Shown piece after piece: positions 6,844 to 53,860 of a stretch of 64,000 bases of DNA. The position numbers and the translations under genes are program-made. The notes below the pieces were generated by a model. It had not been told where the DNA came from, made no database searches, and worked only from the letters and a program-made list of their open reading frames with translations. Source of the stretch: an uncultured Myxococcaceae bacterium (GTDB taxonomy: Bacteria > Myxococcota > Myxococcia > Myxococcales > Myxococcaceae); NCBI GenBank assembly GCA_964511185.1, contig CAZEDU010000001.1, positions 1,741 to 65,740 of the forward strand. Direction: 5' to 3'. Positions within the stretch are counted from its first letter, which is position 1. Each line of letters opens with the position of its first letter.

Positions 6844-6851
6844 GGAGAGAC

Positions 6852-7193
6852 ATGGCGCGCGAGGAACACGAGAGCCACTCCGCCGTGCCCTACGTCATCG
6901 TGTGGGCGCTGCTGTTGGTGTTGACCGCCGCGACGTACCTCTTGGCCAAGGCGCCGATCGGCGCGTGGCACATGCCCGTGGCCCTCACCATCGCGACGAC
7001 CAAAGCCGCGCTGGTGGTGCTCATCTTCATGCACCTCAAAGACCACTCGGTGGCCAACCGCATGGTGTTCGGGCTGAGCCTGGTGTTCGTCGTGCTGCTG
7101 CTCGGGTTGACGCTGTCCGACGGGATGACGCGCGTGCGTTGGACCAACCCGCCCGGCGCCGTCGGCAACCCGCTGGAAGCCGAGGCGGAGTGA
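6852..7193 (+). CDS. Small cytochrome oxidase subunit IV (prokaryotic COX4-like)
   Basis: 113 aa with three hydrophobic helices and a TKAALVVLIFMHLK motif, in the position after coxC. Confidence 0.7.
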   Translation: MAREEHESHSAVPYVIVWALLLVLTAATYLLAKAPIGAWHMPVALTIATTKAALVVLIFMHLKDHSVANRMVFGLSLVFVVLLLGLTLSDGMTRVRWTNPPGAVGNPLEAEAE

Positions 7194-7269
7194 GCGCGAA
7201 GCGCACGGGCTGAATGCCGCGCGGCAAGGCCCTGAAACGGAAAGCGGAAGATCTTCATCGGCCGTCCGA

Positions 7270-7355
7270 ACGAAAGCCCCTCAGCCGTGCCGAGCCACGA
7301 ACGGGGGGACTGACAGCCATTCGCCAACCTTGAAGCGTCTGACGTGTCCTGCCAC
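7270..7355 (-). repeat. Copy A of a dispersed intergenic repeat; the 26-nt core at 7330-7355 is the exact reverse complement of 27214-27239
   Basis: TTGAAGCGTCTGACGTGTCCTGCCAC here equals the reverse complement of GTGGCAGGACACGTCAGACGCTTCAA at 27214-27239. The flank on one side is still alignable (CCCCCGT..CTCGGCAC.GCTG..GGGC). It lies 3' of manB in sense orientation. Confidence 0.6.
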
Positions 7356-7491
7356 GTCGATTGCTTCAAAGTCGCCGTTTTCCAGCACAGCGCGCCGTGC
7401 GGCGGCCGCGTCTTGGCAGATGCTCGAACCATCCGGGCGTCAACCGGCCCGAGATCAGTCAGCACCTGCCCTTTGGGCGAAACACGGCGAG

Positions 7492-8859: not shown

Positions 8860-8956
8860 CGCGTCGCTCCGAAGGGGGACCTACGGCCGCGGGGCTTAGC
8901 ACGCACCTTCCCTGTTGAGGAGTGGCCAGGCTCGAGATGTCTTGGGCCGACGCTGC

Positions 8957-32722: not shown

Positions 32723-32726
32723 GCCG

Positions 32727-33005
32727 CTAGCTCGGCTCGCCGAAGCGGTTGGCGATCAACGCGGCCAGATCCTGCAAGCAGGCCTTCGCGTCGTCGCCTT
32801 CGCACCGAATCGTCACCCGCATGCCCTGGGCGGCCGCGAGCATCAGCACGCCCATGATGGACTTGCCGTTGACCTTCTGACCATCGCACGCCACCTGCAC
32901 GTCGCACTTGTACTGGTTGGCGACCTTCACCAGCTGGGCGGCCGCCCGGGCGTGCAGGCCCAAGGCATTGATGATGTCGTACTCCCCCTCCGCGACGTTG
33001 CCCAT
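32727..33005 (-). CDS. ptsH: Phosphocarrier protein HPr
   Basis: NALGLHARAAAQLV carries the His-15 equivalent and GKSIMGVLML the Ser-46 equivalent, which is the HprK target. Confidence 0.9.
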   Translation of the reverse strand: MGNVAEGEYDIINALGLHARAAAQLVKVANQYKCDVQVACDGQKVNGKSIMGVLMLAAAQGMRVTIRCEGDDAKACLQDLAALIANRFGEPS

Positions 33006-36451: not shown

Positions 36452-37413
<962 letters not shown>

Positions 37414-37450
37414 GCCAAGTGGAGGGGATATCACGTACAAGGCGGAGGCG

Positions 37451-38968
37451 ATGAGCGTTCCGGGCCAGGGCAGCGCGGCGAGCGAGCCGCAGACTCCGAC
37501 GGGTGAGCCAGCGGCGGCGTCCGCGCCGGCCAGCGGCCCGGCCACCGAGCTGCTCGAGCGCCGGGCGGGGCTGTGGCTGCTCGCCCTCTCCGTCGTGTTG
37601 GGCGCGGCGCTGCGCATTCAGCTCGCGCTGACCGACGACGGCATCTTCTGGCCCGACGAGATTTTCCAAAGCTTCGAGCCCGCCCACCGCGCGGTCTTCG
37701 GCTACGGGCTCATCCCCTGGGAGTTCATCGACGGCGCGCGCAACTGGACGCTGCCGGGGATCGTCGCGCTGCTCTTGAAGCTCTGCGCGCTGCTGGGGCT
37801 CGACCAGCCGGCGTTCTACGTGCGCGCGGTGAAGGTGTTCTTCGGGCTGACCGGCGCGCTCACCGCCTGGGCGGTCTACGTGCTCGCGCGGGCGCACAAC
37901 GTCAAAGAGCTGCCGTCGGCCGTGGGCGCCGCGCTCTTCGCGCTGGCCGGGCCGATGATCTACTTCGGCCCGCGGGTGATGAGCGAGACCGCCTGCGCGC
38001 TCCCCGTCGCGGCGGGCTTCGCGCTCGCGCTGCGCCGAAACCCGCGCATCACGCTGGGCGCCTCGCTGGTCGGCCTGGGCGTGTTGCTGCGGCTCCAGGC
38101 GGGCGTCTTCGCGCTCGGCCTGGTGATCATTCTCTTGCGCCGCCGGCAATGGAAGAACGCCGCGCGCGCGACGTGGACGCTCACGGTCTGGGCGCTGGTG
38201 TTCGGCGCGATGGACCGGCTGACCTGGGGCGGCTGGTTCCACTCCGCGGTGCAGTACGTGAACTTCAATCTCATCGAGGGCAAGGCGAGCGGCTGGGGCA
38301 CGGCGCCCTGGAGCTTCTACGCCGAGCACCTGTACCGCTCGATGCCGCTCGTCACCCTCGCGCTCCTGGTGCTCAGCCTGCTCGCGGTGCGGCGCGCGTG
38401 GGGCCTGTTCATCGCCGCGTTCGGTTTCATCGTGCTGCACGCGTTCGTGCCGCACAAAGAGCTGCGCTTCGTGTTGCCCGCGCTGCCGCTGGTGTGCGCG
38501 CTCGCGGGCATCGGGCTCGCGCAGCTGCCGCGCCGCTTCACGCGCTCCGCGGCGGCGGCGGTGGTCGTGGTGGCGCTCGTCTCGGGGCTCGGGGTCTCGC
38601 GGCTGACGTTCGGCGACTTGGGTCAGTACCCCGAGCGGCCGCAGGCGAGCGCGCTCGACGACTTCGGCCCGGTGAATCGGCTGCTGCTCGCCGCGCACGA
38701 ACAGGCGGACCTGTGCGGGCTGCGCATCGACGTCGCCCACCTGGCCTGGACCGGGGGCCACACGTATCTGCACCGGCGGGTGCCGCTCTACCATTTGGGT
38801 CAGCCGCCGTTCTCCGCCGGGACCTTCAACTACGTCCTCGCGGCGGTCGGCCCCGCGTATCCGGGAGAGGTGATCGCGCGCGACGTGAGGAACCCCGCCA
38901 TCGCGCTCGTTCGGCTCTCGCCTGGCCCCTGCAAGCCGGACTTGAGCTACTCCTGGCGGCTGCCTTGA
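37451..38968 (+). CDS. GT22-like (ALG9/PIG-B-type) polyprenyl-phosphate-mannose-dependent mannosyltransferase
   Basis: A polytopic protein with FWPDEIFQSFEPAH in the first loop and FVPHKELRF, which matches the HKExRF signature of GT22 enzymes. The start is uncertain (ATG 37412 or 37451). Confidence 0.75.
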   Translation: MSVPGQGSAASEPQTPTGEPAAASAPASGPATELLERRAGLWLLALSVVLGAALRIQLALTDDGIFWPDEIFQSFEPAHRAVFGYGLIPWEFIDGARNWTLPGIVALLLKLCALLGLDQPAFYVRAVKVFFGLTGALTAWAVYVLARAHNVKELPSAVGAALFALAGPMIYFGPRVMSETACALPVAAGFALALRRNPRITLGASLVGLGVLLRLQAGVFALGLVIILLRRRQWKNAARATWTLTVWALVFGAMDRLTWGGWFHSAVQYVNFNLIEGKASGWGTAPWSFYAEHLYRSMPLVTLALLVLSLLAVRRAWGLFIAAFGFIVLHAFVPHKELRFVLPALPLVCALAGIGLAQLPRRFTRSAAAAVVVVALVSGLGVSRLTFGDLGQYPERPQASALDDFGPVNRLLLAAHEQADLCGLRIDVAHLAWTGGHTYLHRRVPLYHLGQPPFSAGTFNYVLAAVGPAYPGEVIARDVRNPAIALVRLSPGPCKPDLSYSWRLP

Positions 38969-39019: not shown

Positions 39020-39364
39020 ATGGCTGACTGTCTTTTTTGCAAGATTCGCGACGGGCAAATTCCAGCGAAAATCGTTCACCGCGATGAGCTGTGCCTGGGG
39101 TTCGAGGACATCAAGGCGCAGGCGCCGACGCACGTGCTCTTCATCCCCCACCGCCACATCGAGACGGTGAACGACCTGACCGCGGAGGACCGTGAGGTGG
39201 TCGGACAGCTCTACCTGGCCGCCGCGAAGGTGGCGAAACAGCGCGGCCACTCGGAGAGCGGCTACCGGCTGGTGATGAACACCAACCGCGACGCCGGACA
39301 GACGGTGTTTCACATTCATTTGCATTTGCTGGGCGGGCGGCAGCTGGGGTGGCCGCCGGGTTGA
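39020..39364 (+). CDS. HIT-family nucleotide hydrolase (HinT-like)
   Basis: CLFCKIRDGQIPAK and the histidine triad HIHLHLLGG. Confidence 0.9.
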   Translation: MADCLFCKIRDGQIPAKIVHRDELCLGFEDIKAQAPTHVLFIPHRHIETVNDLTAEDREVVGQLYLAAAKVAKQRGHSESGYRLVMNTNRDAGQTVFHIHLHLLGGRQLGWPPG

Positions 39365-39545: not shown

Positions 39546-40445
39546 ATGTTGGTCAGGACCTCGAGAAATCCAAAACACTTCAACCAGTGCCTGCAAAAGC
39601 CGCCGCCGATTCGGGTGGTGACCTTCAACACCGGTGAAGGCAACCGCGCGATTCGAACCGCCGCGCGCGACTACTTGAAGCTCCCGTTCTACCGCGAGGT
39701 GATCTCCGGTCGACCGGACGCGCCCATCGTCGCGCTGCAGGAAGTAAGCGGCGCGCAGGCCAACGCGCTGCTCCGCGAGGCCGCGCGCACGCGCCAGTTC
39801 GGCGTGGTGCGAAGCGGACCACTGGTGTTGCTGGTGCCCAAGCGCTTCGAGCTGCGGGCCGAAGACGCGCGCGGCGGTTCCTTGAAGCGCGCGCAGGTCA
39901 ACGGCGTGCTGCGGTCGGTCTGGCGCGCGGCGTCCCGCCTGAAGCTGCCGGATCGCGACGAGCTCGGGCAGTGGATCGAAATGCGGCCCTATCTACAGGT
40001 GCGTCTGGTCGACCGAATGTCAGGGCGCGGCTTCAGCGTGTTCAACGCGCACCTGTCGGGTCATCCGCCGCTCAAGGTGGAGCAGGCCGAGCAGCTGCTC
40101 TCGAAGGTGGGCCGGGCGCAGCGCGAGGCCCCTGTGATTCTCGCGGGGGACCTGAACGCGGTGATTCCGAACACGCCGCACCGGCAGCTGCCGTCGGACA
40201 AGGCGATGGAGCGGCTCGTCGGCGCGTACGGCCTGACCGAGATGAGCCTCATGCCGCTCCCCACCCCGCGCCGCCGCGATTTGGATTGGGTGCTCGCGCG
40301 CGGCTTCATCCCCGAGAAGACGCGCTACTACGCGGAGCAGTTCGAGTCGCTCCCGGGTGCGCCCGAGGCGCTCGAGGTGAGCGATCACCTCGCGAAGGAA
40401 ACGACGCTGCGCCTGGCGACCCGCTACCGCCCAAGACCGCACTGA
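39546..40445 (+). CDS. Endonuclease/exonuclease/phosphatase (EEP) family protein
   Basis: VVTFNTGEG, ALQEV, ILAGDLNA and EVSDH motifs in EEP order. Confidence 0.75.
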   Translation: MLVRTSRNPKHFNQCLQKPPPIRVVTFNTGEGNRAIRTAARDYLKLPFYREVISGRPDAPIVALQEVSGAQANALLREAARTRQFGVVRSGPLVLLVPKRFELRAEDARGGSLKRAQVNGVLRSVWRAASRLKLPDRDELGQWIEMRPYLQVRLVDRMSGRGFSVFNAHLSGHPPLKVEQAEQLLSKVGRAQREAPVILAGDLNAVIPNTPHRQLPSDKAMERLVGAYGLTEMSLMPLPTPRRRDLDWVLARGFIPEKTRYYAEQFESLPGAPEALEVSDHLAKETTLRLATRYRPRPH

Positions 40446-42960: not shown

Positions 42961-43593
42961 TCAGCGCTGAAACCGAACCGGCAGCCGGAAGCACTCGCTT
43001 CCGCGCGGCAGCGGCAGCGCGCCTGGAATCACGCAGTCGAGCGCGGCCTGGTCCAACAGGGTCGAGCCCGAGCTGTGCACCAGCTCGACGCCGGCCGCGG
43101 TGCCTTCGTGGGTCAAGCACAATCGAACGGCTGCCTCACCCGTGAGCCCATAGCGCTGCGCCGCCTTGGGGTAGCAGCGAAGGGCTGCGGCGGCGAGGCG
43201 CGCGTGCAGGGCGGACCCGTCGACTCCGGCCCCGGCCCCACCGCCCGCGCCTGCGCCTGCGTTCGCCGAGCCTCCCCCTTCTTCACCCGCGCCCACGTCG
43301 ACCGAGCCCTCCCCCGCCGCGTCATCGACCGGCACCCCCCGCGACGTGGCCATCCGCGCGGGCGCTCCCCGGGCGCGCGGCGGGCGCGTGCCTTTCGGCT
43401 CCGCGGGAGCAGCGGGCGCGCCGGAGGAGACCAGCCCGACGCGAAGAGACGTCTGCTGCGGCGCCGGCGGTTCGGCCGGCAAGCGCCTCGGCCGAGACGA
43501 GACCGCCAGCGCCAGCACCGCCGCATGCACCCCCACCGACACCGCGAGCGCGATGGTCCCAGCGCGGCGCTTCGGAGACAGCGGCAGCCCCAT
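42961..43593 (-). CDS. tonB: TonB-family energy transducer
   Basis: An N-terminal anchor (AGTIALAVSVGVHAAVLALAV), a Pro/Ala-rich spacer and a C-terminal TonB_C-like YPKAAQRYGLTGEAAVRLCL...LLDQAALDCV. Confidence 0.8.
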   Translation of the reverse strand: MGLPLSPKRRAGTIALAVSVGVHAAVLALAVSSRPRRLPAEPPAPQQTSLRVGLVSSGAPAAPAEPKGTRPPRARGAPARMATSRGVPVDDAAGEGSVDVGAGEEGGGSANAGAGAGGGAGAGVDGSALHARLAAAALRCYPKAAQRYGLTGEAAVRLCLTHEGTAAGVELVHSSGSTLLDQAALDCVIPGALPLPRGSECFRLPVRFQR

Positions 43594-43607
43594 AGGCCCC
43601 GCCGCTT

Positions 43608-44399
43608 CTAGCGGTTTTCCGAGCCGCGGTGGAGCGAGGGGACGAAGAACACCCTCCCGCCCGACAGCTCGGCGCGCTCCATCGGCAGGCCGTAGAGCGC
43701 CTCCAGCCGCTCGCGGGTGAGCACCTCGGCGGGCGCGCCTTGCGCCAGCACCCGGCCCTCCCGGAGCAAGACGACCTCGTCGGCGAACGCCGTCGCCAAG
43801 TTCACGTCGTGCAGCACCGCCACCGCGCTCGCCCCGGTCGCCACGTGCGCCCGCACCCGCTCGAGCGAGGCCACCTGGTGCTTCAAGTCCAGGAACGCCG
43901 TCGGCTCGTCGAGGAACAGCACCTTCGGCGCCTGCATCAGCGCGCGCGCGAGCAGCACCAGCCGCTTCTCGCCCCCCGACATCTGCGTCGCGGGCCGCTC
44001 GGCCAACGCGCCGATGCCCAGCGCCTCGAGCCGCGCGCGCGCCTTCGCCTCGTCGCCGCCCGACGGCAGCCCCCACGGGCCCAGGCGGGGCGAAAGCCCC
44101 ATCAGCACCAGCTCGAGCCCGGTGAAGCCCGCGCCCTCGTCGATGGTCTGCGGCACCCAGGCGAAGTCGCGCGCCAGCGCGGCGCGGCCGTACGCGCCCA
44201 CCGCCTGGCCCTTCCACTCGACCTTCCCCGCCGAGGGCGCCACGAGCCCCATCAACACGCGCAGGAGCGTGCTCTTGCCCGCGCCGTTGGGCCCCAGCAC
44301 CGCAGTCATCCGGCCGGGAGCCACGCGGAGCGCGATGCACTCGAGCACCGGGCGCGCGCCGTAGCCCGCGCTCATGCCCTCGACGACCAACCCGCTCAC
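43608..44399 (-). CDS. ABC transporter ATPase of the BtuD/FepC/FecE type
   Basis: Walker A motif GPNGAGKSTLL, signature MSGGEKRL and Walker B motif LFLDEP. The GTG start overlaps the kinase stop (GTGA 44396-44399). Confidence 0.9.
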   Translation of the reverse strand: MSGLVVEGMSAGYGARPVLECIALRVAPGRMTAVLGPNGAGKSTLLRVLMGLVAPSAGKVEWKGQAVGAYGRAALARDFAWVPQTIDEGAGFTGLELVLMGLSPRLGPWGLPSGGDEAKARARLEALGIGALAERPATQMSGGEKRLVLLARALMQAPKVLFLDEPTAFLDLKHQVASLERVRAHVATGASAVAVLHDVNLATAFADEVVLLREGRVLAQGAPAEVLTRERLEALYGLPMERAELSGGRVFFVPSLHRGSENR

Positions 44400-46255
44400 T
44401 TCTTGAGCGCCTTCGCTTCGAGGTCGCGCCGCAGCGCCTCGGCGGCCTTGAGGAACCCAGGCCCCTGGTCGGGCCGCGCCACCGCCTCGTAGTAGCTGTC
44501 GGTCAGGTTCGAGTACCGCTGGCACAGCGTCTTGATCACATCGCAGTTGTACCGGCGGCGAACCTGGTCATACGCCGCCCGCATGCGCTCGTACTCGCGC
44601 TCGAGCTGCGCCACCGGGACGGTCTTGCGGACGGGCTTGGCCGCGGGCCTGGGCTTGGAAGGCGCGGGGGCCTGCAGCGGCGCCAAGGTGAGCTCGTCGT
44701 CCTCGGCCTCCAACGCCTCGTCGTCGGGCGCCGCGAAAGAGTCGTCGGGCTCCAGCGCGTCGGCGGGGATGTCGGGCATCGCCGACTCCGGCTCCACCGG
44801 CTCGATGCGCACCGCCACCGCCGGCGCGGGCGCGGGCGGGCGCAGGAAGAGAACCGCCCCCGCGACGAGCGCGAACGAAATCAACGCCGCCCCGACGAAC
44901 CACGCCCAGCGCGGCACCGCGCGCGGCGCCCGCACCGGCCCGGTCCACTCGTCGGGGTCGGTCTGCGACTCCCGCGGCGGCGCGTCGAGGGTCTTGCGGC
45001 CGTGCGGCCCGCTCCCGCCGGGGTCGGTGTCCTCGGGCTCGCCCGGCGAGGTCTTCTCGAGCGACGCCGGGGGAAGAATCTCCGCGCTGGCCCACGGCAC
45101 GCTGTCCGCCGCGGTCGTCTCCATCGGCTCCGCCACCACCGGCGCGAGCTGGGTGGGCTGCTCGAGCAGGCTCCCCGGGATGGTCTCGTCGCGGCCGGGC
45201 ACCGCCTCGTCGAGCGTGGCGACGGGCCGCAACGGCGGCTGCGACTGCCCGCTGCGCGACGGCGACTTGAGCGAGCTGAGCAGCCTTCGCTCCTGCTGAA
45301 ACTCGGTCTCGAACATCTGCCGCATGCACTGGCCGGCCTTCTCCGCGCCGCCGGTGAGGCCCAGCTCGACTTGGCACTGGAGCAGCTGCGCGCGAAACGC
45401 ATCGGCGGTCTGAAAGCGCTCGGACGGCTCGACCGCCAGCGCCTTGTTCAGCACCGCCTCCAGCGAGGCCGGGCAGTCGGGCTTGAGCTCGCGCAGAGGC
45501 CGGAGCGCGCCGCGCCCGACCTCGGGGAGCAGCTGCGGCGTGGGGGTGTCCTCGAACGGGTTGCGCCCGGCGACGAGCTCGAAGAGCACCACCCCCACCG
45601 AGTACAAGTCGCTGCGCGCGTCGACCTGCGCCTGCCGCGCCTGCTCGGGCGACATGTAGAGGAACTTGCCCATCACGATGCTGGGGTTGGTCTTCGCGGC
45701 GTTGAGCGCGCTCTTGGCGAGCCCGAAGTCGATGACCTTCACCTCGCCTTCGTACGAGACGAGGATGTTCTGCGGCGAGATGTCGCGGTGGACGAGGCCC
45801 AGCTCGCGGTCCTGCTCGTCGCGCTTTCGGTGCACGTACGCCAGCGCCTCGAGCACCCGCATCACCAGGTGCACCGACACCTCGAGCTTGGGCGGGGTGG
45901 AGAGCTCGCGCGCGCGGTTGAGCAGCCTGCGCAGGTCCTTCCCGTCCACGTACTCGAGCGCCAAATACGGCTCGCCGTCCACCATGCCGACGTCGAGCAC
46001 CTGCGCGATGGCGCCGTGCTGCAGCTGCACCAGCGTCTTCGCCTCGTCGACGAAGCGGTTCAGAAAGCCCGGGTCCCGCGCCAACGCGGGCCGCACCCGC
46101 TTGACGACGCACAGCTTGCCGAACCCCCGCGTGCCCTCCAGCCGCGCGATGAACAGCTCGCCCATGCCGCCCGACGAGAGCGGCAACAAGAGCGTGTACC
46201 GGCCGAACGGCGTCGGGTGGAAGGGCCGCAGGCGGTTGGGGCTGGGGCTCGTCAT
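44396..46255 (-). CDS. Membrane-spanning Hanks-type Ser/Thr protein kinase
   Basis: GGMGELF, VVKRV, HRDISPQNIL, DFGLAK and SPEQ motifs. One TM helix (WAWFVGAALISFALVAGAVLFL) is followed by about 150 aa outside. Confidence 0.9.
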   Translation of the reverse strand: MTSPSPNRLRPFHPTPFGRYTLLLPLSSGGMGELFIARLEGTRGFGKLCVVKRVRPALARDPGFLNRFVDEAKTLVQLQHGAIAQVLDVGMVDGEPYLALEYVDGKDLRRLLNRARELSTPPKLEVSVHLVMRVLEALAYVHRKRDEQDRELGLVHRDISPQNILVSYEGEVKVIDFGLAKSALNAAKTNPSIVMGKFLYMSPEQARQAQVDARSDLYSVGVVLFELVAGRNPFEDTPTPQLLPEVGRGALRPLRELKPDCPASLEAVLNKALAVEPSERFQTADAFRAQLLQCQVELGLTGGAEKAGQCMRQMFETEFQQERRLLSSLKSPSRSGQSQPPLRPVATLDEAVPGRDETIPGSLLEQPTQLAPVVAEPMETTAADSVPWASAEILPPASLEKTSPGEPEDTDPGGSGPHGRKTLDAPPRESQTDPDEWTGPVRAPRAVPRWAWFVGAALISFALVAGAVLFLRPPAPAPAVAVRIEPVEPESAMPDIPADALEPDDSFAAPDDEALEAEDDELTLAPLQAPAPSKPRPAAKPVRKTVPVAQLEREYERMRAAYDQVRRRYNCDVIKTLCQRYSNLTDSYYEAVARPDQGPGFLKAAEALRRDLEAKALKK

Positions 46256-46315
46256 CGCTGCCCGGAGGCGGGCGAGGAATGTTCACCCGAAGGCGACGAC
46301 GGACGCCAGCGTTGT

Positions 46316-48022
46316 TCAGCTGGATTTCGAGCCGGGGTCGGTGACATGGCCGGCGTCTTCTTCGACCACCTCGAACACCGGCACCGGCGAAGTCCGGCCG
46401 CCCAGCATCCGCTCCCCGCGGGGGACGACCTCGAACTTGCCGCCGGTGGCCATCAAGGTGGGCTTGGTGACCAGGATTTGGCCGGGTTGCGCGGCGGACG
46501 CCAGCCACGACGTGAGGTTCACCGTCTCCCCGAAGGCCGTGTAGTCAAGCCGCGCCGGGCTGCCGACAGTGCCCACCAGCACCGGGCCCGTACACAGGGC
46601 GAGCTTCAGCTCGAGCTGCTCGGCTTCAGGCCGCTCGGCCATGGCCCGCGCCCACTCGGCCCTCAGCGCGAGCGCGGCCCGCACCGCGCGCAAGGCGTCG
46701 TTGCCGCGCGCCCACGGCGCCCCGAACATGGCCATCATCGCGTCGCCGACGAACTTGTCGACGGTGCCTTCGAAGCTGAAGACGATGCTGGTCATGCGCT
46801 TGTAGAACTCGTTGAGCAGCGCGGTCACCCGCTCGGGCGACGCGCGCTGCGCGAAGGCGGTGAAGCCGGCCAAGTCGGCCAGCAGCACGGTCACCTCGCG
46901 CTTCTCCAGTACGGTGACGGGAACGTCGCCCAGCTGGCGCATCTCGACCAGGCGCCGCTCGACGATGTTGGGCGCGTGGAAGCGCTCGAGCACCTCGCGC
47001 AGCCGGCCGTCGCCCGCGGTGGGCTGCTCGGACGAGAAGCGCTCGACGGCGTGAAAGAGCAGCCGGCCGACCTCGGTGCACAGCTCGAGCGTCTTCTCCA
47101 GCTGGTCCTTGCCTTCGCGCTGCGCGGCGCGGTTCAGGTACAGCACGCCGACGAACGGCGGCCGCGCGCCGATGGGCACGCACAGCACCTGGTCGACGCC
47201 GTACATCACCACGCTCTCGCGCGAGGCGAAGCGGGAGTCGTCGCGGACGTTGCGCACCGCCAGCGCCGCGCCCTGCTCGAGCGCCGCCTCGATGACCGCG
47301 TCGGACACCGGCGCCTCGCCCTCCGTCAGCTTGCCGCGGTGACGCACGGTGGCCGGCGCGAGCGCGCCCGACAGGTGCCGCAGCATCACCACCGCGGTGG
47401 TCGCGTTCACCGCCTGCATCAGCTTGTCGACGGTGTCGTCGAGGAAGCGCGTCAGCGAGGTCGCCGCGTGGAGGGCTTCGGAGACTTTGTAGAGGAACAG
47501 CAGCGACTCGTAGCGGATGGGCAGCGAGCCTTTCTCGACCGCGAGCGCGTTCATGTCGAGCGGCGGCTGGGTGGGCTCGAACGGCGCCACGTTGTCCAGC
47601 GCGCGCATGAGCGAGCTCTCCTTCACCCCGCGCGAGAGCACCACCTCGCGGGCGATGTCGACGCCTTGGCCGAAGCGCCGCACGCCCCCCGTCGAGATGT
47701 CCACCACCTCGGTGCGCACGTCCTCGCTCGCCTCGGGCTGGCGGATGAGCAGCGTGTTCTCGCCGACGGTGATGGTGTCGCCCGGCTTCAGGGCGATCGC
47801 CGCCTCCACCGCCAGGCCGTTCACCTTGGTGCCGTTTCGGCTCTCCAGGTCTTCGACCTCGACGCGGCCGTTCTGCACGCGCAGCCGCGCATGCTGGCGG
47901 GACACCATGTCCCCCGAGAGAACGATGTCGTTCTCATCGGCGCGGCCCAAGCTGGTATCGCCCTCCGGCAAGTCGTAGGAGGTGTCGAAGTAGCCCGGGC
48001 CATTGATGACGAGCTGCCACAT
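46316..48022 (-). CDS. FHA - GAF - class III nucleotidyl cyclase domain protein
   Basis: The N-terminus is FHA-like (LGRADENDIVLSGDMVSRQHARL...SRNGTKVNG). The central region is GAF-like. The cyclase motifs are VTVLLADLAGFT, DKFVGDAMMAMFG and FGETVNL. Confidence 0.85.
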   Translation of the reverse strand: MWQLVINGPGYFDTSYDLPEGDTSLGRADENDIVLSGDMVSRQHARLRVQNGRVEVEDLESRNGTKVNGLAVEAAIALKPGDTITVGENTLLIRQPEASEDVRTEVVDISTGGVRRFGQGVDIAREVVLSRGVKESSLMRALDNVAPFEPTQPPLDMNALAVEKGSLPIRYESLLFLYKVSEALHAATSLTRFLDDTVDKLMQAVNATTAVVMLRHLSGALAPATVRHRGKLTEGEAPVSDAVIEAALEQGAALAVRNVRDDSRFASRESVVMYGVDQVLCVPIGARPPFVGVLYLNRAAQREGKDQLEKTLELCTEVGRLLFHAVERFSSEQPTAGDGRLREVLERFHAPNIVERRLVEMRQLGDVPVTVLEKREVTVLLADLAGFTAFAQRASPERVTALLNEFYKRMTSIVFSFEGTVDKFVGDAMMAMFGAPWARGNDALRAVRAALALRAEWARAMAERPEAEQLELKLALCTGPVLVGTVGSPARLDYTAFGETVNLTSWLASAAQPGQILVTKPTLMATGGKFEVVPRGERMLGGRTSPVPVFEVVEEDAGHVTDPGSKSS

Positions 48023-48051
48023 GTGCGGAGCCCGCGAAGCGTAGCACGTCG

Positions 48052-49068
48052 TCAGGCGCGGCGAGCGAGCAAGAGCAGAAACAAAGGGCCGCCGATGAGC
48101 GCCGTCAGCGCACCCACCGGCGGCTCGGCGCCGAACCAGGGGAACAGCGAGCGCGCCGCCAGGTCCGCCAACACCAGGAAAGCCGCGCCGCCCAGCGCGC
48201 TGCCCGGGAGCAGCAAACGGTTGTCTGCACCGAGGCGCAGGCGAAGCAGATGTGGCACCACGAGCCCCACAAATCCCACCAGGCCGGCGAGCGCGACGGC
48301 CACCGCGACCGCCAGTGAGGCGAACAGCAGGATCAGGCCGCGCACCCGCCGCACCGGCGCGCCCAGCGACGCGGCGTCTTCGTCGCCCAGCGCGAGCAAG
48401 TTGAGCTGCCCGGAGAGCGCCCACAGCCCGCCCAGCGCCAGCGCCTGCAGCGCCGCGGCGAGGAGCAAGGTGCTTGAGCGCTCGTAACCGATGGCGCCCG
48501 CGAGCCAGTAGAGAATCTGACCGAGCTTGTCGGGCGCGGCGAGCGTCTTGATGAAGGTCACCGCCGCGAGCGCGAACGCGTTGACGATGACACCGGCGAG
48601 CAGCACCACGTGCGGCCCGCGGCCCCCCGCAAGCTCGCCCAGCGCGAAGACGAGCACGGTGGCGAGCAGCGCCCCGCCGAGCGCGAACGCCTGCGGCCCC
48701 AGGTCGCTCACCCAACCGGCCTGAAGCCCAATGCCGCCCAAGCCCAAGGCGAGCGCGAGGGTGGCGCCCAGCGCGGCGCCGCCGGAGACGCCCAAGAGCA
48801 GCGGCTCGGCGAGCGGGTTTCGGGTCAGCCCCTGCAGCGCGCAGCCGGAGGCGGCGAGCGCGGCGCCGACCAACGCCGCCAAGGCCGCGCGCGGCCAACG
48901 CAGCGACCAGAAGATGACCGCGTCGGGCGCCTCCCCTCCCAGCGCGCGAGAGAGCGAAATCGGCTGCTCGCCGAAGAGCACCGCGCAGCCGAGCGCGACG
49001 GCCAGCACGCACGAGAGCCCCACGAGCACCAGCGCCAGCCTCCAGGGGCGAACGCGGGCCGCGCTCAC
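48052..49068 (-). CDS. FecCD/BtuC-type ABC permease
   Basis: LRWPRAALAALVGAALAASGCALQGLTRNPLAEP and GALTALIGGPLFLLLL. The GTG start overlaps the upstream stop (GTGA 49065-49068). Confidence 0.9.
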   Translation of the reverse strand: MSAARVRPWRLALVLVGLSCVLAVALGCAVLFGEQPISLSRALGGEAPDAVIFWSLRWPRAALAALVGAALAASGCALQGLTRNPLAEPLLLGVSGGAALGATLALALGLGGIGLQAGWVSDLGPQAFALGGALLATVLVFALGELAGGRGPHVVLLAGVIVNAFALAAVTFIKTLAAPDKLGQILYWLAGAIGYERSSTLLLAAALQALALGGLWALSGQLNLLALGDEDAASLGAPVRRVRGLILLFASLAVAVAVALAGLVGFVGLVVPHLLRLRLGADNRLLLPGSALGGAAFLVLADLAARSLFPWFGAEPPVGALTALIGGPLFLLLLARRA

Positions 49069-49907
49069 GGGACGTCCTTGCCGTGCACCAGCGCGAACAG
49101 CTCGTGGAGCCCGCGCGCGAGCCTGGGGCCCGGGTGCAGCAGGTCCTGCGAGGCGGGCCGCACCCAGCGGGCGCGCTGAAGCCCTTCGAGCGCGCGCAGC
49201 GCCTGAACGCCGGTGCGCGAATCGGCGAGGTCGATGATGACGTCGGGCCGCGCGGCGAGCACGCGCTCCACCGAGTACACCGGGTAAGGCACGCGCGCGT
49301 CGGCCGCGACGTTGACGCCGCCGGCGTCCGCGAGCAGCTCGGCGCCGAACGAGCCGGGGCCCGCCACCACCAGCGGCGCGAAGCCGTAGACGATGAGGAC
49401 CTTCTTCTTCGAGAGCCCCGCGGACTTGCGCCGCACCTCCGCGCGCGCGGCCTGAATCCGCGCGACGAGCGCGGCCGCCTCCTGCTTCTTGTCGAGCGCG
49501 GCGCCCACCGCTTCGATGGCGGCCAGCGTCTGGGCCACGGTGTGGAGCGGCAGCGCGAGCACGGGGATGCCCAGCTCGGCCATCTTCTCCACCGGCGCGC
49601 GGTTGCCGGGCCCGGGCTGCACCAGCACCAAGTCGGGCGCGAGCTTCACCACCGCCTCGACGCTGGGGTCCGAGAAGCCGCCGACGCGGGGCAGGCGCTG
49701 GACCGCCTCGCCTTCGTCGTAGCGCGAGACGCCGACCAGCCGCTCCCCGGCGCCCAGCGCCTCCACCGTCTGCGTGAGCGACGGCGCGAGGGTCACCACG
49801 CGCCGCACCGGCCGGTCGAGCGGCGGGCCGTGGAAGGCAGGCGCGTCCGCCCACGCCAGCGCGCTCCAGCCGCACGCGGCGGCGCAGAGGATGGCAAAAA
49901 GCCGCAT
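49065..49907 (-). CDS. BtuF/FhuD-type periplasmic binding protein
   Basis: Signal peptide followed by RRVVTLAPSLTQTVEALGAGERLVGVS and PDLVLV, a class III substrate-binding protein pattern. Confidence 0.85.
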   Translation of the reverse strand: MRLFAILCAAACGWSALAWADAPAFHGPPLDRPVRRVVTLAPSLTQTVEALGAGERLVGVSRYDEGEAVQRLPRVGGFSDPSVEAVVKLAPDLVLVQPGPGNRAPVEKMAELGIPVLALPLHTVAQTLAAIEAVGAALDKKQEAAALVARIQAARAEVRRKSAGLSKKKVLIVYGFAPLVVAGPGSFGAELLADAGGVNVAADARVPYPVYSVERVLAARPDVIIDLADSRTGVQALRALEGLQRARWVRPASQDLLHPGPRLARGLHELFALVHGKDVP

Positions 49908-51502
49908 CACGGGAGCGCGAGCAGGTCGGCCACGTTCGACACGCCGGTGGTCGAGTCGACCGCGCACGCCTGAATCGGCCCGCCGGACTGGTAGCCGCGC
50001 CGCTCGACCAGGCCGCCGTCGGTGAAGCCGTAGACGAACACGCGGCCGCCGTTCTGGTCCGCCACGAAGACGTCGCCTCCGACCAGCGCGAACCGACCTG
50101 GGACGATGGGCGAGCAGTCGCCGGTGTGAGGGCAGGCGATGGGCGTGGCGGCCAGGCGCGTGCCGTCGGCCTGCACGACCACCAGCGCCGCCTTCTCGAC
50201 GCCGTTGGCGAGGAAGGTGGTCGGGTCGTAGCTCACCTTGCCCTGGCAGGTGACGAAGAGCCGCTGCCCGTCGGACGCCACCGAGACCGCGTTGAGGCAC
50301 ACGTCGTTGCCCAGGTCGATGGGCGTGACGTCGCCGCTCACCGGGTCGATGCGCGCCAACATGCCGTTGCCTTCGGGCACGTAGGTGTCGGGGTTCAAGT
50401 TGCTGAGCGCGACGAAGAGCTGGCCCTGGTGCGCGGTGATGGACCACGGCCGCGCGACCGGGTCGCCGTTGGGCAGCGGCTGGAGCGCGGCGCCTTGCGG
50501 CATGGGGTAGCTCGTCACCGCCGAAGGCGCCTCGGGTTGGGTGATGTCGACCTTCACCACGCGCTGGCCCGCGCTGGCCGCCGCGGCGCCGAAGCCGCCG
50601 TAGAGCGGCACGTACATCGCGTCGCCCAGCTTCACCGCGGCCTCGGGGAAGGTGTTCGCGCCGAAGGACACCTCGGCGACCGTGGCGAGCTGGAGCCCGC
50701 CGTCGACGGACGCGTAGCTCGCCGCGGTGGACGCGTTGCGCCGGAGGACCTGCAGCGTGCCGCTCGAGGCGTTCACCACGTACACGTACGGGTCGAACGC
50801 GAGCACCTGGTTGGGCACCGAGCCGGTGGTCGGCGCGCCCGAAACCTGCGCGAACGGCGCGCCGGTGGGCGCGAGCGAGGCCTGGTAGACGCGGTCGTCG
50901 ATGCCGTCGAGCGAGAGCAGCACGTCGGCGACGGCGGCGAGCGACTGCGGCGCGGTGCCGATCGCGGCGTTGGGCCCCTTCAAGCCCGTCTGAGCCTGCA
51001 GGCCGGTCACCTGGCCGTTGCTGAAGCAGGCGGCGACCACGTCGTACTGGCAGACGCCGTTCCTGCAGCTGCGCGCGTCCTGGCACGCGTTGCCGCACGC
51101 GCCGCAGTGGAGCGGGTCGCTCCCGAGCGCGACGCACGACTGGCCGCACAGAGTCGACGTGGTGAAGTTGCAGGCGGACTTGCACTGGCCGCCCTCACAC
51201 ACCAGCCCCGCGCCGCAGGCGTTGCCGCACGCGCCGCAGTTGAGCGGGTCGGTGGCGAGCACGGCGCAGCCGGTGCCGCACACCTCGGTGCCGGGGCCGC
51301 ACCGGCACGCGCTCTCCTGGCACACCTGGCCCGGCTGACAGGCGACGCCGCAGCCACCGCAGTTAAGCCGGTCGCTCGTCAGGTCCGCGCAGCCTTGGCC
51401 GCACGCCGCGAGCCCCTGGGTGCACAGCACGCGTTGCTCCGGACAGCCGAACGAGAAGAAGGCGAGCGCGAGCGCGCCCGCGGTGAGGAGATGGCGGTTC
51501 AT
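49907..51502 (-). CDS. Lipoprotein with three Stig1-like Cys-rich repeats followed by a YVTN/YncE-like beta-propeller
   Basis: Lipobox FFSFGC. Three repeats of about 44 aa follow the pattern C..C..L.(S/T)D..(N/H)CG(A/G)CG..C.....C..G.C. Recurring blade-like strands follow (YVYVVNASSGTLQVL, QLFVALSN, RLFVTCQGK, DVFVADQNGGRVFVY). The ATG overlaps the receptor stop (ATGA). Confidence 0.7.
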   Translation of the reverse strand: MNRHLLTAGALALAFFSFGCPEQRVLCTQGLAACGQGCADLTSDRLNCGGCGVACQPGQVCQESACRCGPGTEVCGTGCAVLATDPLNCGACGNACGAGLVCEGGQCKSACNFTTSTLCGQSCVALGSDPLHCGACGNACQDARSCRNGVCQYDVVAACFSNGQVTGLQAQTGLKGPNAAIGTAPQSLAAVADVLLSLDGIDDRVYQASLAPTGAPFAQVSGAPTTGSVPNQVLAFDPYVYVVNASSGTLQVLRRNASTAASYASVDGGLQLATVAEVSFGANTFPEAAVKLGDAMYVPLYGGFGAAAASAGQRVVKVDITQPEAPSAVTSYPMPQGAALQPLPNGDPVARPWSITAHQGQLFVALSNLNPDTYVPEGNGMLARIDPVSGDVTPIDLGNDVCLNAVSVASDGQRLFVTCQGKVSYDPTTFLANGVEKAALVVVQADGTRLAATPIACPHTGDCSPIVPGRFALVGGDVFVADQNGGRVFVYGFTDGGLVERRGYQSGGPIQACAVDSTTGVSNVADLLALP

Positions 51503-53439
51503 CGAAGAACGTCCTTTCGGGAAGCGGGAGAGGGAGACGATGCGAAGTCCCACGCGACGGCGGCGGTGACGTACGCGGCGCGGCCAGGCAGGGGGTAGCC
51601 GTCCAGGTCCTGGCTTTGGACGTCGAGCAGGTTCTTGAGCTCGCCGGCGACCTGGAGCTCGGGCCGCCGGGTCACGGTGGCGACGAGCCCCACGTTCACG
51701 AACGCGCGCTCTTCGAGGAAGAGCGTCTCGGTGCGGTTGGTGAACTGGCGCGACTGGAAGAGCAGCTCGGCGTGGCCGCGCAGCGTCGAGGGCCCCAGCT
51801 CGAGCCGGGCGGCGACCTTGTGGCGCGGGCGGTAGGGCAGCGTCTTCAAGTAGTAGCGCGGGTCGTCCTTCAGGTTCTGCGACGACAGGTACGTGTAGCT
51901 GCCGGTGGCGCCCAGCCAGTGCGTGGGCTCGAGCCGCGCCTCGGCCTCCAGCCCCGACACGCGCGCGGTGGCGAAGTTGTAGGGGCGCGCGAGCAGCGGC
52001 GGGTAGTACTCGTAGCTGATCAGGTCCTCGTAGAGGCTGTAGAAGCCGCCCACGCTCACCCGCGTGCGCTCGGTGCGGTGGGCCACCGCCACGTCGGCGA
52101 AGAGCGCCCGCTCGGGCCGGAGCTGAGGGTTGGGCAAGAGCGAGCCCTGCACCACGTACAGCTCGAGGAACGACGGCGCCCGATGCGCCTGGCCGGCGTT
52201 GGCCTTGAGCTCGAAGCCGGCGGGCAGCTGGAGCGCGGCGCCCAGCTTGGGGGAGATGCCGTTGAACGGCCCGGTGCGGTCGAAGCGCAAAGACGGCGTG
52301 AGCGCGAAGGCGCCGCCGGCGAAGAGCACCTCGTCGGCGGCCATCACCGCGAAGCGCACCCAGCCGGGGTTCACCTCGGTGGGCTCGAAGAGCGAATCGC
52401 CGGCGACCAGGAGCGTGGCCGACACCCCGTGCCGCTCGGCGAAGAGCTGCGCGTAGGTCGCGTCCACGCCGACGCTCTGGGTGGTTTGCCGGTGGCTCCC
52501 GAGCGAGGTCAGGCTGTGCAGCGCGAGCGCGTCGCGCTGGCCGAAGGCGAGGAACGAGAGCGCGCCCGCGGGAGAGAGGCTCCGCTCGACCCGCGCCGCG
52601 CCCAAGACGCGCTCGCCCCGCTGCCGCGACTCGAGCGTGGGGTTGGCTGCGGTGCCGGCGAGCCCGCGGTCATCGGCGTTGGCCTCGAGGAGCGCCTCGC
52701 CCTGCCAGGCCCCGGCCAGCGCGCGGCGAAACTTGAGCAGCGCCCCGCCGTGCGCGGCCTGGTTGTTCTGCCGCCGCACCGTCGACAGCGGGTTGCCTTC
52801 GAGGTTGGGCTGCGCATCGTGCGCGAAGGAGAAGTCGCCGGCGCTCTGGCCGCCGTGCAAGAGCACGAGCCCCTCGCCGCCGAGCAGCGCGCCCGTGGCC
52901 CCGGCGTGCAGCAGGCCCGTCCGGAAGCTGCCGTACGACGCCTCCGCGAACGCGCGCGCGCCGTCTCGGGCGCGCCGCGTCGACAGGTACACCGCCCCGC
53001 CCAGCCCGCCGCTGCCGTAGCGCGCGCCGGCGCCGCCGCGCTGCACCTGCGCCGCCTCGAGCGCCGCGGCCGGCACCCGGCTCAAGTCGACGTTGCCGCC
53101 GGCCGGGTTCAGCGGAACGCCGTCCAGGAAGACGAGCACCGCGTTCGGCGAGGCGCCGCGCACCGACAGGTTCTGGCGCTGGCCGAAGCCGCCCACGTCG
53201 TGCACCACCAGCCCCGGCGCGGGCGCGAGCCAGTCGGCGGTGCTCTTCACTTCGCTGGTGGCGGGCGGGCGCGTCACCTCGCTGATCGCCGCGGTCGGGT
53301 CGCGGCGGGCGGGCGCGTCGGGCGTGTCGATGGTGGGAGCGGGCGCGGGCACCACCACCGGCGGCAGCTCGCTCTCTTCTCCTCGCGCCGGGAGCGCGGA
53401 GGCGTGCACCGCCAGAAGAATGAGTGAGAGACGCCGCAT
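51499..53439 (-). CDS. TonB-dependent outer-membrane receptor, BtuB-like by riboswitch context
   Basis: Signal peptide and plug motifs (QNLSVRGASPNAVLVFLDGVPLN, VQRGGAGARYGSGGLGG) with a beta-barrel. A cobalamin riboswitch lies in its 5' leader. Confidence 0.9.
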   Translation of the reverse strand: MRRLSLILLAVHASALPARGEESELPPVVVPAPAPTIDTPDAPARRDPTAAISEVTRPPATSEVKSTADWLAPAPGLVVHDVGGFGQRQNLSVRGASPNAVLVFLDGVPLNPAGGNVDLSRVPAAALEAAQVQRGGAGARYGSGGLGGAVYLSTRRARDGARAFAEASYGSFRTGLLHAGATGALLGGEGLVLLHGGQSAGDFSFAHDAQPNLEGNPLSTVRRQNNQAAHGGALLKFRRALAGAWQGEALLEANADDRGLAGTAANPTLESRQRGERVLGAARVERSLSPAGALSFLAFGQRDALALHSLTSLGSHRQTTQSVGVDATYAQLFAERHGVSATLLVAGDSLFEPTEVNPGWVRFAVMAADEVLFAGGAFALTPSLRFDRTGPFNGISPKLGAALQLPAGFELKANAGQAHRAPSFLELYVVQGSLLPNPQLRPERALFADVAVAHRTERTRVSVGGFYSLYEDLISYEYYPPLLARPYNFATARVSGLEAEARLEPTHWLGATGSYTYLSSQNLKDDPRYYLKTLPYRPRHKVAARLELGPSTLRGHAELLFQSRQFTNRTETLFLEERAFVNVGLVATVTRRPELQVAGELKNLLDVQSQDLDGYPLPGRAAYVTAAVAWDFASSPSPASRKDVLR

Positions 53440-53522
53440 CGCTCCGCCTTCCGCTCCCTCCTGCGAAGAGAGAAGGCACTTCGCGGCGAAGCCCTCTTAA
53501 GAGGCGCTTCACCACACCCTCG

Positions 53523-53740
53523 GGCAGGTCTCCTGGCTTCTTCGGGCTCGAACCCAAGCGCACGATGCGCGGGTTCCGGATTCGGGGGCCTCCCACCTTC
53601 CCTCGCCCAACCCAGGCGAAGTGGCGACTGCGCTGGAGACCCCGCCTGGCCCCGAACGGGGGCCGCCCAAGTCACAGTGGCGGGACCGCGCCGGGCTTCC
53701 ACCGGCTTCCCTCTTTGAGCTGCCTCTTTGGCAACCCGAA
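53523..53740 (-). promoter_or_regulatory. Cobalamin (B12) riboswitch
   Basis: The minus strand reads ...AGAGGGAAGCCGGUGGAAGCCCGGCGCGGUCCCGCCACUGUGA... plus a second GCCACU...GGGAAGG. A B12 box GAAGCCAGGAGACCUGCC is at 53540-53523, about 84 nt upstream of the receptor ATG. Confidence 0.85.
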
Positions 53741-53860
53741 GGCGGCCCGGCTTGTACGCGGCGGTGTCGATGCCGGTCAAGCAGACCCATGCGTCTCGGA
53801 CCCGAGATGCCGTTGGCGAATCCGTACGACGCCGCCCCGCCGAGCGCCGCGGGCGGGCCA

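Follow-up and report, generated by a model that had tools for sequence, protein, structure and literature searches.

Why should a membrane-anchored serine/threonine kinase and an FHA-domain protein be encoded in the middle of a vitamin B12 (cobalamin) uptake cluster? The question is raised by a 64,000-nt stretch of DNA from an uncultured Myxococcaceae bacterium (GenBank assembly GCA_964511185.1, contig CAZEDU010000001.1, positions 1,741 to 65,740, forward strand), which we call the window and whose own numbering is used for its features. Here a cobalamin riboswitch is followed by eight co-directional genes, and the genes for a Hanks-type kinase and an FHA-GAF-cyclase-homology protein (together, the pair) stand between those for a BtuC-like permease and a BtuD-like ATPase. 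With somewhat more conviction than doubt, we interpret the region as a vertically inherited B12-acquisition cluster of the Myxococcia in which the pair would constitute a conserved accessory module for Ser/Thr phospho-signalling. The evidence that carries this interpretation is gene content, conserved gene order, recurrent association with cobalamin riboswitches, the coupling of kinase stop and btuD start, and patterns of residue conservation.

Gene content and riboswitch of the cluster

All eight open reading frames are intact, lie on the minus strand behind the riboswitch, and returned the expected domains in Pfam and NCBIfam searches. This agrees with the list of genes and domains that an initial annotation had drawn up from the sequence:

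53506-53754, minus strand: cobalamin riboswitch aptamer, a full-length match to the Rfam model RF00174
51499-53439, minus strand: TonB-dependent receptor, BtuB-like (Pfam Plug and TonB_dep_Rec_b-barrel)
49907-51502, minus strand: Cys-rich propeller lipoprotein (NCBIfam NF041328), with an N-terminal Stig1-like repeat region and a C-terminal beta-propeller
49065-49907, minus strand: periplasmic binding protein, BtuF-like (Pfam Peripla_BP_2, 110 bits)
48052-49068, minus strand: ABC permease, BtuC-like (Pfam FecCD, 263 bits)
46316-48022, minus strand: FHA-GAF-cyclase-homology protein of 568 aa (Pfam FHA, GAF and Guanylate_cyc)
44396-46255, minus strand: membrane Hanks-type kinase (Pfam Pkinase PF00069, 121 bits)
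43608-44399, minus strand: ABC ATPase, BtuD-like (Pfam ABC_tran)
42961-43593, minus strand: TonB-family protein with an N-terminal transmembrane segment (Pfam TonB_C, 36.5 bits, above the cut-off; TIGR01352)

The riboswitch that had been placed upstream of these genes was matched by RF00174 at 61.3 bits, against a gathering score of 31.5 (E=9.9e-13, model positions 1-189), and relatives also have matches to RF00174 at the corresponding position. The seven junctions, in 5' to 3' gene order, read ATGA, TGATG, GTGA, 29 nt, 60 nt, GTGA and 14 nt, and all of them agree with the initial annotation. In the last GTGA the GTG start codon of the ATPase gene overlaps the kinase stop codon. This overlap and the gene order place the pair inside the transporter cluster rather than beside it, again as proposed.

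Receptor, periplasmic binding protein, permease, ATPase and TonB form a full uptake set, co-directional behind RF00174. The assignment of the transporter genes to B12 comes from this riboswitch context and not from model thresholds; the receptor, BtuF, BtuC and ATPase homologues all score well under the curated NCBIfam equivalog cut-offs. The best model for the receptor is TIGR01779 TonB-B12 (117 against a cut-off of 600) and that for the binding protein is BtuF PRK03379 (96 against 234). The top two matches of the permease are BtuC models (213 against 461), and the ATPase best matches heme, corrinoid and F420-0 ATPases, with the corrinoid model within the top three (211 against 537).

Conservation of the pair in the Myxococcia

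The family of FHA-GAF-cyclase-homology proteins (554 matches at E<=1e-20, the nearest non-self sequences being 57-58% identical) appears, by the names of the source organisms, to be essentially restricted to Myxococcota. We collected 24 genome loci, 61 metagenome loci and 11 annotated neighbourhoods, cited below by L numbers where they must be told apart, and placed the window's eight proteins in them by tblastn. The order btuC-[FHA-cyclase]-[kinase]-btuD is not a one-off. A homologue of the FHA-GAF-cyclase-homology protein (hereafter, a cyclase homologue) lies beside btu genes and/or an orthologous kinase gene in 36 of the 51 loci with enough flank, and each of the seven isolates whose genomes we inspected carries the pair in its B12 cluster: Pyxidicoccus parkwayensis CP071090, P. 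xibeiensis, Hyalangium gracile, Myxococcus stipitatus CP102770, Corallococcus macrosporus CP022203, Archangium gephyra CP102578 and Cystobacter fuscus CP043491. In 24 loci no more than ~110 nt separate the cyclase stop from the start of the kinase gene; in seven more, 1.7-9 kb of inserted DNA lies between them. Wherever kinase and btuD are both present (19 loci), btuD follows at an estimated -4 to +26 nt; by the gene calls in L025-L029, the two genes either overlap by 4 nt or stand 4 nt apart. The surrounding genes (CstA or CLC, HIT, Glyco_transf_22 and those of the phosphotransferase system, PTS) are syntenic with the window in relatives, and by this synteny the locus is taken to be old and vertically inherited.

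Two layouts join the pair to cobalamin riboswitches. In layout 1 (the window, L025, L026, L043 and L071), a single riboswitch stands upstream of the receptor gene and the pair comes directly after btuC. In layout 2, seen in nine loci of Myxococcaceae and Archangiaceae (L027, L028, L046, L052, L062, L092, L093, L094 and L095), a second cobalamin riboswitch (81.5-99.8 bits) lies after btuC or after the lipoprotein gene. It heads a sub-operon encoding a protein of ~430-500 aa, a LIC_13355-like lipoprotein of ~235-250 aa, a Rieske protein, the cyclase homologue and the kinase, in some cases followed by BtuD. The first riboswitch, upstream of the receptor gene, was found in the window and eight relatives. 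In M. stipitatus and C. fuscus, btuF, btuC and btuD are gone from the cluster, and the receptor, the propeller lipoprotein, the second riboswitch, the three extra genes and the pair are kept. The link of the pair is thus with the B12-regulated cluster itself, not with btuD alone, and these btuFCD-less genomes provide what we regard as the strongest argument for a selected association.

An intact FHA pocket joined to a doubtful cyclase

The FHA-GAF-cyclase-homology protein runs from its FHA domain through a disordered linker to a GAF domain, a helical pre-cyclase segment and a cyclase-homology domain (CHD). The boundaries in the AlphaFold2 model are FHA 1-95, GAF ~171-330 and CHD 373-555, with all three domains well folded. 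In the FHA domain (Pfam PF00498, 68.5 bits), the phospho-Thr pocket formed by G26, R27, S41, R42, H44 and N63 is invariant in 120/120 homologues.

The CHD belongs at the level of fold to the family PF00211 but departs from the class III catalytic set at the arginine position. Most class III cyclases are described as having an Asn-Arg transition-state pair (PMC4215837), and in mammalian adenylyl cyclase the arginine is essential, according to Yan 1997 as summarised in that article. The position of this arginine is occupied by Trp506 in the window and by tryptophan in 116 of the 120 homologues; none has arginine. The register is clear from the motifs, VNLTSWLAS in the window, VNLASRLES in Pseudomonas aeruginosa CyaB (3r5g) and VNLTYRIES in Synechocystis Cya2 (2w01). 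The remaining catalytic positions are less conserved than this tryptophan across the same set (first metal Asp 102/120, second metal Asp 109/120, Lys 97/120, Asn 85/120). Some Btu-linked orthologues have lost further catalytic residues, namely those of Pyxidicoccus (E/G/G at the metal, Lys and Asn sites), L011 and L020, and catalysis is therefore not the conserved property.

These residues bear on the relay that the initial annotation had proposed. There, a single riboswitch-run operon of eight genes would respond to B12 limitation by inducing the kinase, phospho-Thr would dock the FHA domain, and the class III cyclase would make cAMP or cGMP as a starvation messenger. The window protein does retain the metal aspartates D383 and D427, the substrate pair K423 and T495, and N502, and the CHD is well conserved together with the pre-cyclase segment (L345, R347, H349, P351, R357). 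A non-canonical transition-state residue can also be compatible with activity, since the mycobacterial cyclase Ma1120 is active despite such a residue at the Asn position (PMC4215837). The near-universal tryptophan and the additional losses in Btu-linked orthologues argue the other way. Canonical cyclase activity, and with it a cyclic-nucleotide output, appears doubtful from these residues; we are probably dealing with a pseudo-cyclase or else with a cyclase of an atypical kind. We consider the relay as a whole unlikely, also on account of the expression signals described below.

The kinase

The kinase consists of a catalytic domain (residues 18-297), a Pro-rich linker, a transmembrane segment at ~450-475 (hydropathy scan) and a C-terminal segment of ~70 aa, which is helical, extracytoplasmic and marked by two conserved cysteines. 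It carries the GGMGE, VVK, HRD, DFG and SPE motifs and aligns to Mycobacterium tuberculosis PknB across the whole domain. Two positions in the region of residues ~150-200 differ from PknB: the catalytic loop reads HRDISPQN instead of HRDVKPAN, exchanging Lys for Ser, and the P+1 loop reads GKFLYMSPE instead of GTAQYLSPE, exchanging Thr for Lys. Both swaps are invariant in ten orthologues, which form a tight group and vary in the HRDxSPxN loop only by conservative exchanges between I and V and between Q and P. Possible FHA-binding sites of the form pT-x-x-(I/L/V/D) in the juxtamembrane region (LSFAPTPR, DGETxP in relatives) were considered and dropped, as they are not conserved in the window.

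Expression signals and independence of the pair

A number of observations weigh against a B12-linked signalling module; they concern the kinase itself, the control of its expression, and the constancy of the linkage. The paired swap in the kinase could mark a relocated catalytic lysine or be a pseudokinase signature, and no cognate PP2C phosphatase was found among the flanking genes scanned. The signals relevant to expression are the following:

53751-53780, minus strand: possible cluster promoter TTGACC-N18-TACAAG, directly 5' of the aptamer, read from the sequence
53440-53513, minus strand: expression platform, a hairpin and then a pyrimidine tract, CCUUCUCUCUUC, pairing with the first gene's Shine-Dalgarno region (GGAGGGAGCGGAAGG)
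48038-48047, minus strand: extended -10-like element GTGCTACGCT (TGnTAnnnT) between btuC and the cyclase gene, 15 nt upstream of the cyclase start codon
46256-46315, minus strand: 60-nt cyclase-kinase gap, without the GGTTCAAT motif of most relatives

The TTGACC-N18-TACAAG sequence is a possible promoter for the cluster and was not called by the consensus scan. No U-tract terminator is present in the window's expression platform, and the predicted pairing of the pyrimidine tract suggests that the platform sequesters the Shine-Dalgarno sequence of the first gene and acts by translational control, although the fold z-score of -0.34 is not significant. With a platform of this translational appearance, an effect of the riboswitch on genes 5-10 kb downstream would be indirect.

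The pair may also have promoters of its own. The element before the window's cyclase ATG includes TGCTACGCT, and no Shine-Dalgarno sequence precedes that ATG. When the 120 nt before the cyclase ATG were aligned from 63 non-redundant loci, TAnnnT was found 5-30 nt upstream of the start codon in 39 (compared with 7.3% of random 40-mers), and the 3' end of the -10-like hexamer lay mostly 10-15 nt from the ATG. Almost all of the 63 loci have an equivalent of the window's element at the corresponding position. Most loci without TAnnnT, chiefly from the clade of unlinked homologues discussed below, have CATACT at the same place; linked loci carry TGnTAnnnT or GTGTAATGT, and unlinked ones GCATACT. 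These elements were found by cross-locus comparison only, not by the consensus scan. They are shared by stand-alone copies, which must have their own promoter. The element upstream of the cyclase gene suggests an internal promoter with a very short leader, giving a near-leaderless transcript.

Upstream of the kinase gene, the motif G[GCT]TT[CG]AAT (GGTTCAAT) occurs 17-38 nt before the ATG in ~21 of 24 aligned gaps, and its frequency over all loci is ~0.1 per kb (examples lie at ~11737 in L028, ~16791 in L092 and ~18491 in L093). Myxococcaceae have CCGGTTGAC(G/C)GGTTGA ahead of it, and the two together would read TTGAnG-N18-TTCAAT. The motif is perhaps a promoter or an operator. We treat it as a DNA element; an RNA hairpin (CCGGTTGACCGG) was rejected as poorly supported, with a stem of only 3-4 bp.

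The consensus scan found neither terminator-like nor sigma70-consensus sites in the 29-nt and 60-nt gaps, which bears out the earlier statement that no hairpin with a U-tract is present there. The whole region holds 8 terminator-like sites, compared with 5.4 expected from shuffles. One flagged site, a 15-bp GC-rich hairpin followed by CCTTTGTTTC at 48088-48124 on the minus strand, lies within the btuC coding sequence near its 3' end, ~35 nt short of the stop codon. We discount it, since region-wide counts of such sites are at chance level, and it is probably a coincidence of the coding sequence.

The proposal of one eight-gene transcription unit is therefore left with terminator-free gaps in its favour and with the predicted -10-like elements and the translational-looking platform against it. 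The same two features count against the cyclic-nucleotide relay, which is otherwise consistent with the riboswitch and the gaps. What stands of that relay is the linkage of the pair to cobalamin riboswitches in two operon layouts; the cyclic-nucleotide output and the control through a single transcript are both doubtful. Predicted internal promoters are compatible with read-through, and control of the pair by the riboswitch may operate perhaps by read-through only.

The linkage, too, is less than constant. Since the whole neighbourhood is syntenic across the Myxococcia, adjacency is weaker evidence of function than it would otherwise be. In fifteen loci, each with a downstream flank of 8 kb or more, neither btu genes nor the kinase gene adjoin the cyclase homologue. 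A neighbour-joining tree places most of these unlinked loci in one clade, together with loci having 3-5 kb cyclase-kinase insertions. The unlinked homologues are either orthologues that have drifted more than 10 kb away or paralogues; the A. gephyra isolate carries a linked copy and a metagenome-assembled genome labelled A. gephyra an unlinked one. Genes have also been inserted on the opposite strand. A candidate defence pair, PDC-M56A/B (E=3e-118), lies between cyclase and kinase genes in L025 (11713-13337, minus strand), and a response-regulator gene with a ThsA-like SIR2 gene lies between btuC and the cyclase gene in Hyalangium L029 (7556-9889, plus strand). The cluster is an insertion hotspot, and by these two cases operon continuity is not universally required.

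Two further insertions were seen. In A. gephyra (L094, 3779-5118), four tRNA genes and an ankyrin-repeat gene follow btuC. In L026, a 1.5-Mb contig of a metagenome-assembled genome, two more signalling genes lie between btuF and btuC (6072-8883), encoding a 545-aa protein with weak HATPase_c_2/STAS matches and a FIST-domain protein.

Taken to its end, such looseness would mean that an unrelated pair landed between btuC and btuD in the ancestor of the Myxococcia, brought its own promoters, and has stayed there by inertia with no role in B12 physiology. The equal synteny of functionally unrelated flanking genes, the promoter-like elements before both genes, the large clade of unlinked homologues, and the tolerance of insertions at the cyclase-kinase and btuC-cyclase junctions would all be expected on this account. 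It does not so readily explain why the overlap or near-abutment of kinase stop and btuD start has been kept in lineages only ~50-60% identical. Nor does it explain why the pair has stayed co-directional downstream of a cobalamin riboswitch (in the nine layout 2 loci and the contiguous layout 1 loci) through a series of rearrangements that includes the insertion of three genes with a riboswitch, tRNAs, an ankyrin gene, defence islands and the loss of btuFCD. After that loss, two genomes still keep the pair with the receptor, the lipoprotein and the riboswitch. We thus view synteny without function as distinctly unlikely.

The defence candidates inserted in L025 and L029 also raise the possibility that the pair is itself an anti-phage module, a PD-T4-6-like kinase with a Pycsar-like cyclase in a defence-island hotspot. 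In PADLOC the kinase scores up to 236 bits with PD-T4-6 models and the CHD 81 bits with PycC, but these scores come from the homology that kinases, and class III cyclases, share in general. Unlike mobile defence genes, the pair has been passed on vertically and keeps one fixed place in the chromosome throughout the class. No Pycsar effector gene is present, FHA and GAF domains are foreign to PD-T4-6 and Pycsar, and the association with riboswitches points elsewhere. This explanation is highly improbable and was rejected on these grounds.

A possible mode of action

Returning to the conserved accessory module that we favour, the transcription pattern, phosphorylation, docking, target and output of the pair are inferred here from the features described above. 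At low B12, the riboswitch would permit expression of the cluster, and the pair would be induced via read-through on top of a basal expression from its own promoter-like elements. The kinase would be made together with BtuD through translational coupling and would sit in the inner membrane beside BtuCD, where it could phosphorylate itself or a transport component on threonine. The invariant FHA pocket of its partner would then dock on this phospho-Thr. The GAF domain and a CHD dimer would serve mainly as a regulated scaffold, for dimerisation, or as a nucleotide- or ligand-binding module, at best a weak cyclase and not a canonical generator of cyclic nucleotides. As an output, B12 uptake could be adjusted, the B12 supply could be reported to the cell, or both.

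A more specific version is tentative. The pair might be a protein-level sensor or regulator of B12 status, in which docking of phospho-Thr and FHA gates uptake or links prey-derived B12 to development. In such a sensor, B12 flux would be read by the extracytoplasmic domain of the kinase or through its coupling to BtuCD-F, or an intracellular ligand would be read by the GAF domain.

The propeller lipoprotein and other genes of the region

The second gene of the cluster overlaps the stop codon of the receptor gene and encodes a lipoprotein with a signal peptide and a cysteine. It matches the NCBIfam family NF041328 ('MXAN_6577-like') at 137.7 bits against a cut-off of 100. An AlphaFold model built with 35 homologues (predicted local distance difference test score, pLDDT, 93.4; predicted template-modelling score, pTM, 0.91) is an all-beta propeller after a Cys-rich region. 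Family match and model together confirm the earlier description of a Cys-rich beta-propeller lipoprotein. A sequence search against the PDB gave no match. The top Foldseek matches in the PDB are the Bacteroides BtuG1/2/3 lipoproteins with cobalamin (8okv, 8bmx, 8ptf, 8p97), at E ~1e-10, template-modelling scores to target of 0.6-0.68 and 12-14% identity, although unrelated 7- and 8-bladed propellers score almost equally. From this model the protein may be a candidate BtuG analogue outside the Bacteroidota, capturing B12 at the cell surface.

The three extra genes of layout 2 are lacking in the window, conserved in Myxococcaceae and Archangiaceae, and uncharacterised. The third encodes a small Rieske protein, and the ~430-500 aa product of the first had no match in Pfam or NCBIfam. 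They were located as follows:

L027, 6867-9854: three extra genes behind the second riboswitch
L028, 4463-9846: three extra genes behind the second riboswitch
L092, 11831-14907: three extra genes behind the second riboswitch
L093, 13636-16612: three extra genes behind the second riboswitch
L094, 5247-8105: three extra genes behind the second riboswitch
L095, 5339-8168: three extra genes behind the second riboswitch

In Hyalangium, M. stipitatus, C. macrosporus and C. fuscus, the cluster has a second FHA protein, stand-alone and of 159-188 aa, encoded directly upstream of the first riboswitch and the receptor gene. We looked for such a gene upstream of the window's riboswitch and found none.

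L029, 1-169: stand-alone FHA gene
L092, 7079-7603: stand-alone FHA gene
L093, 6994-7473: stand-alone FHA gene
L095, 1113-1679: stand-alone FHA gene

The downstream flank of the cluster in the window contains the following genes, of which the HIT, Glyco_transf_22 and PTS genes recur beside the cluster in relatives, and CstA also in L028 and L092:

40461-42140, minus strand: CstA
39546-40445, plus strand: Exo_endo_phos-family gene
39020-39364, plus strand: gene whose product has an N-terminus resembling HIT-family proteins, judged without a domain scan
37412-38968, plus strand: Glyco_transf_22
~30965-33005, minus strand: open reading frames with HPr-like and PTS enzyme I-like N-termini, recognised by eye

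Comparison with known systems

The transporter half of the cluster resembles btuB/btuFCD loci and the BtuB-BtuG systems of Bacteroides, with its cobalamin riboswitch, TonB-dependent receptor, BtuF/C/D-like importer, and propeller lipoprotein encoded right after the receptor. The window's propeller differs from BtuG in its extra N-terminal Cys-rich repeat region and in its 12-14% identity. We know of no described Btu locus in which btuC and btuD flank genes for a Ser/Thr kinase and an FHA protein. In the searchable literature, mostly exclusive of subscription journals, we found no description of a kinase and an FHA protein in a riboswitch-controlled vitamin transporter cluster.

For the signalling half there are two precedents. 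Ser/Thr phosphorylation tunes an ABC transporter in the case of M. tuberculosis PknF/Rv1747 (PMC8339232). Contacts between phospho-Thr and FHA domains control that transporter. As in our cluster, a Hanks kinase gene adjoins an ABC-transporter gene and an FHA domain is the presumed reader of phospho-Thr. Rv1747, however, is an exporter with two fused FHA domains, whereas the window encodes a type II importer, BtuCD-F. By Pfam, BtuC, BtuD and BtuF have no FHA domain, which is found on the separate GAF/CHD protein. The kinase gene here would be translationally coupled to that for the ATPase subunit, and the locus stands under a cobalamin riboswitch.

The second precedent is the actinobacterial nutrient-sensing relay GlnH-GlnX-PknG-GarA/OdhI (PMC9769921). 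In that relay, as in the window, the genes for a periplasmic binding protein, a membrane component, a Ser/Thr kinase and an FHA effector occur together, and the relay reports the availability of a nutrient. It differs in having no transporter subunits or riboswitch, whereas in the window the kinase is membrane-anchored and the FHA protein has a GAF domain and a CHD. PknG is soluble, and GarA/OdhI is an FHA-only inhibitor of metabolic enzymes. The pair is a member of neither architecture; both are its closest precedents.

The FHA-GAF-cyclase-homology protein can further be compared with GAF-cyclases such as cyanobacterial CyaB1/CyaB2, with which it shares a GAF domain, a helical transducer and a class III CHD; its best PDB matches are CyaB 3r5g and Cya2 2w01. 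It departs from them by the family-wide exchange of Arg for Trp, the variable loss of other catalytic residues and the added N-terminal FHA domain. The parts of the cluster are all of known kinds; what is apparently new is their combination, conserved throughout the class, with an Arg-to-Trp CHD and a Lys/Thr-swapped kinase.

Implications for myxobacterial biology

A clue to physiology comes from Myxococcus xanthus, where MXAN_6568, 6569, 6575 and 6576 are ABC components and MXAN_6579 is a TonB-dependent receptor (PMC4103005, PMC3222651). The gap of five genes between MXAN_6575/6576 and MXAN_6569 fits layout 2, and MXAN_6577 gives its name to the lipoprotein family. The M. xanthus locus is thus probably MXAN_6569-6579, in which MXAN_6571 and MXAN_6570 would be the pair; no annotations of MXAN_6570/6571 were found in the article supplements. 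Insertion mutants of MXAN_6569, 6575 and 6576 in strain DK1622 were altered in fruiting-body circularity, grayness and sporulation (adjusted p=0.000; PMC4103005 Table S1). In these mutants polar effects on intervening genes are possible. Targeted gene disruption is routine in M. xanthus (PMC4103005).

The control of B12 uptake is, to our knowledge, thought to lie almost entirely with riboswitches, and we know of no layer of protein phospho-signalling upon it. Myxobacteria such as M. xanthus need external B12 for growth, and B12 is the chromophore of the CarH light sensor. If our reading of the cluster is true, it would tie vitamin supply in a new way to the control of transport and possibly to development. 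Were the tentative sensor function also true, the pair would be the first case of a vitamin having a Ser/Thr phosphorelay of its own, in operation together with a riboswitch. As the locus is present in cultured and sequenced species, the idea is directly testable, and the large, mostly uncharacterised myxobacterial kinome would gain one member with a clear physiological context.

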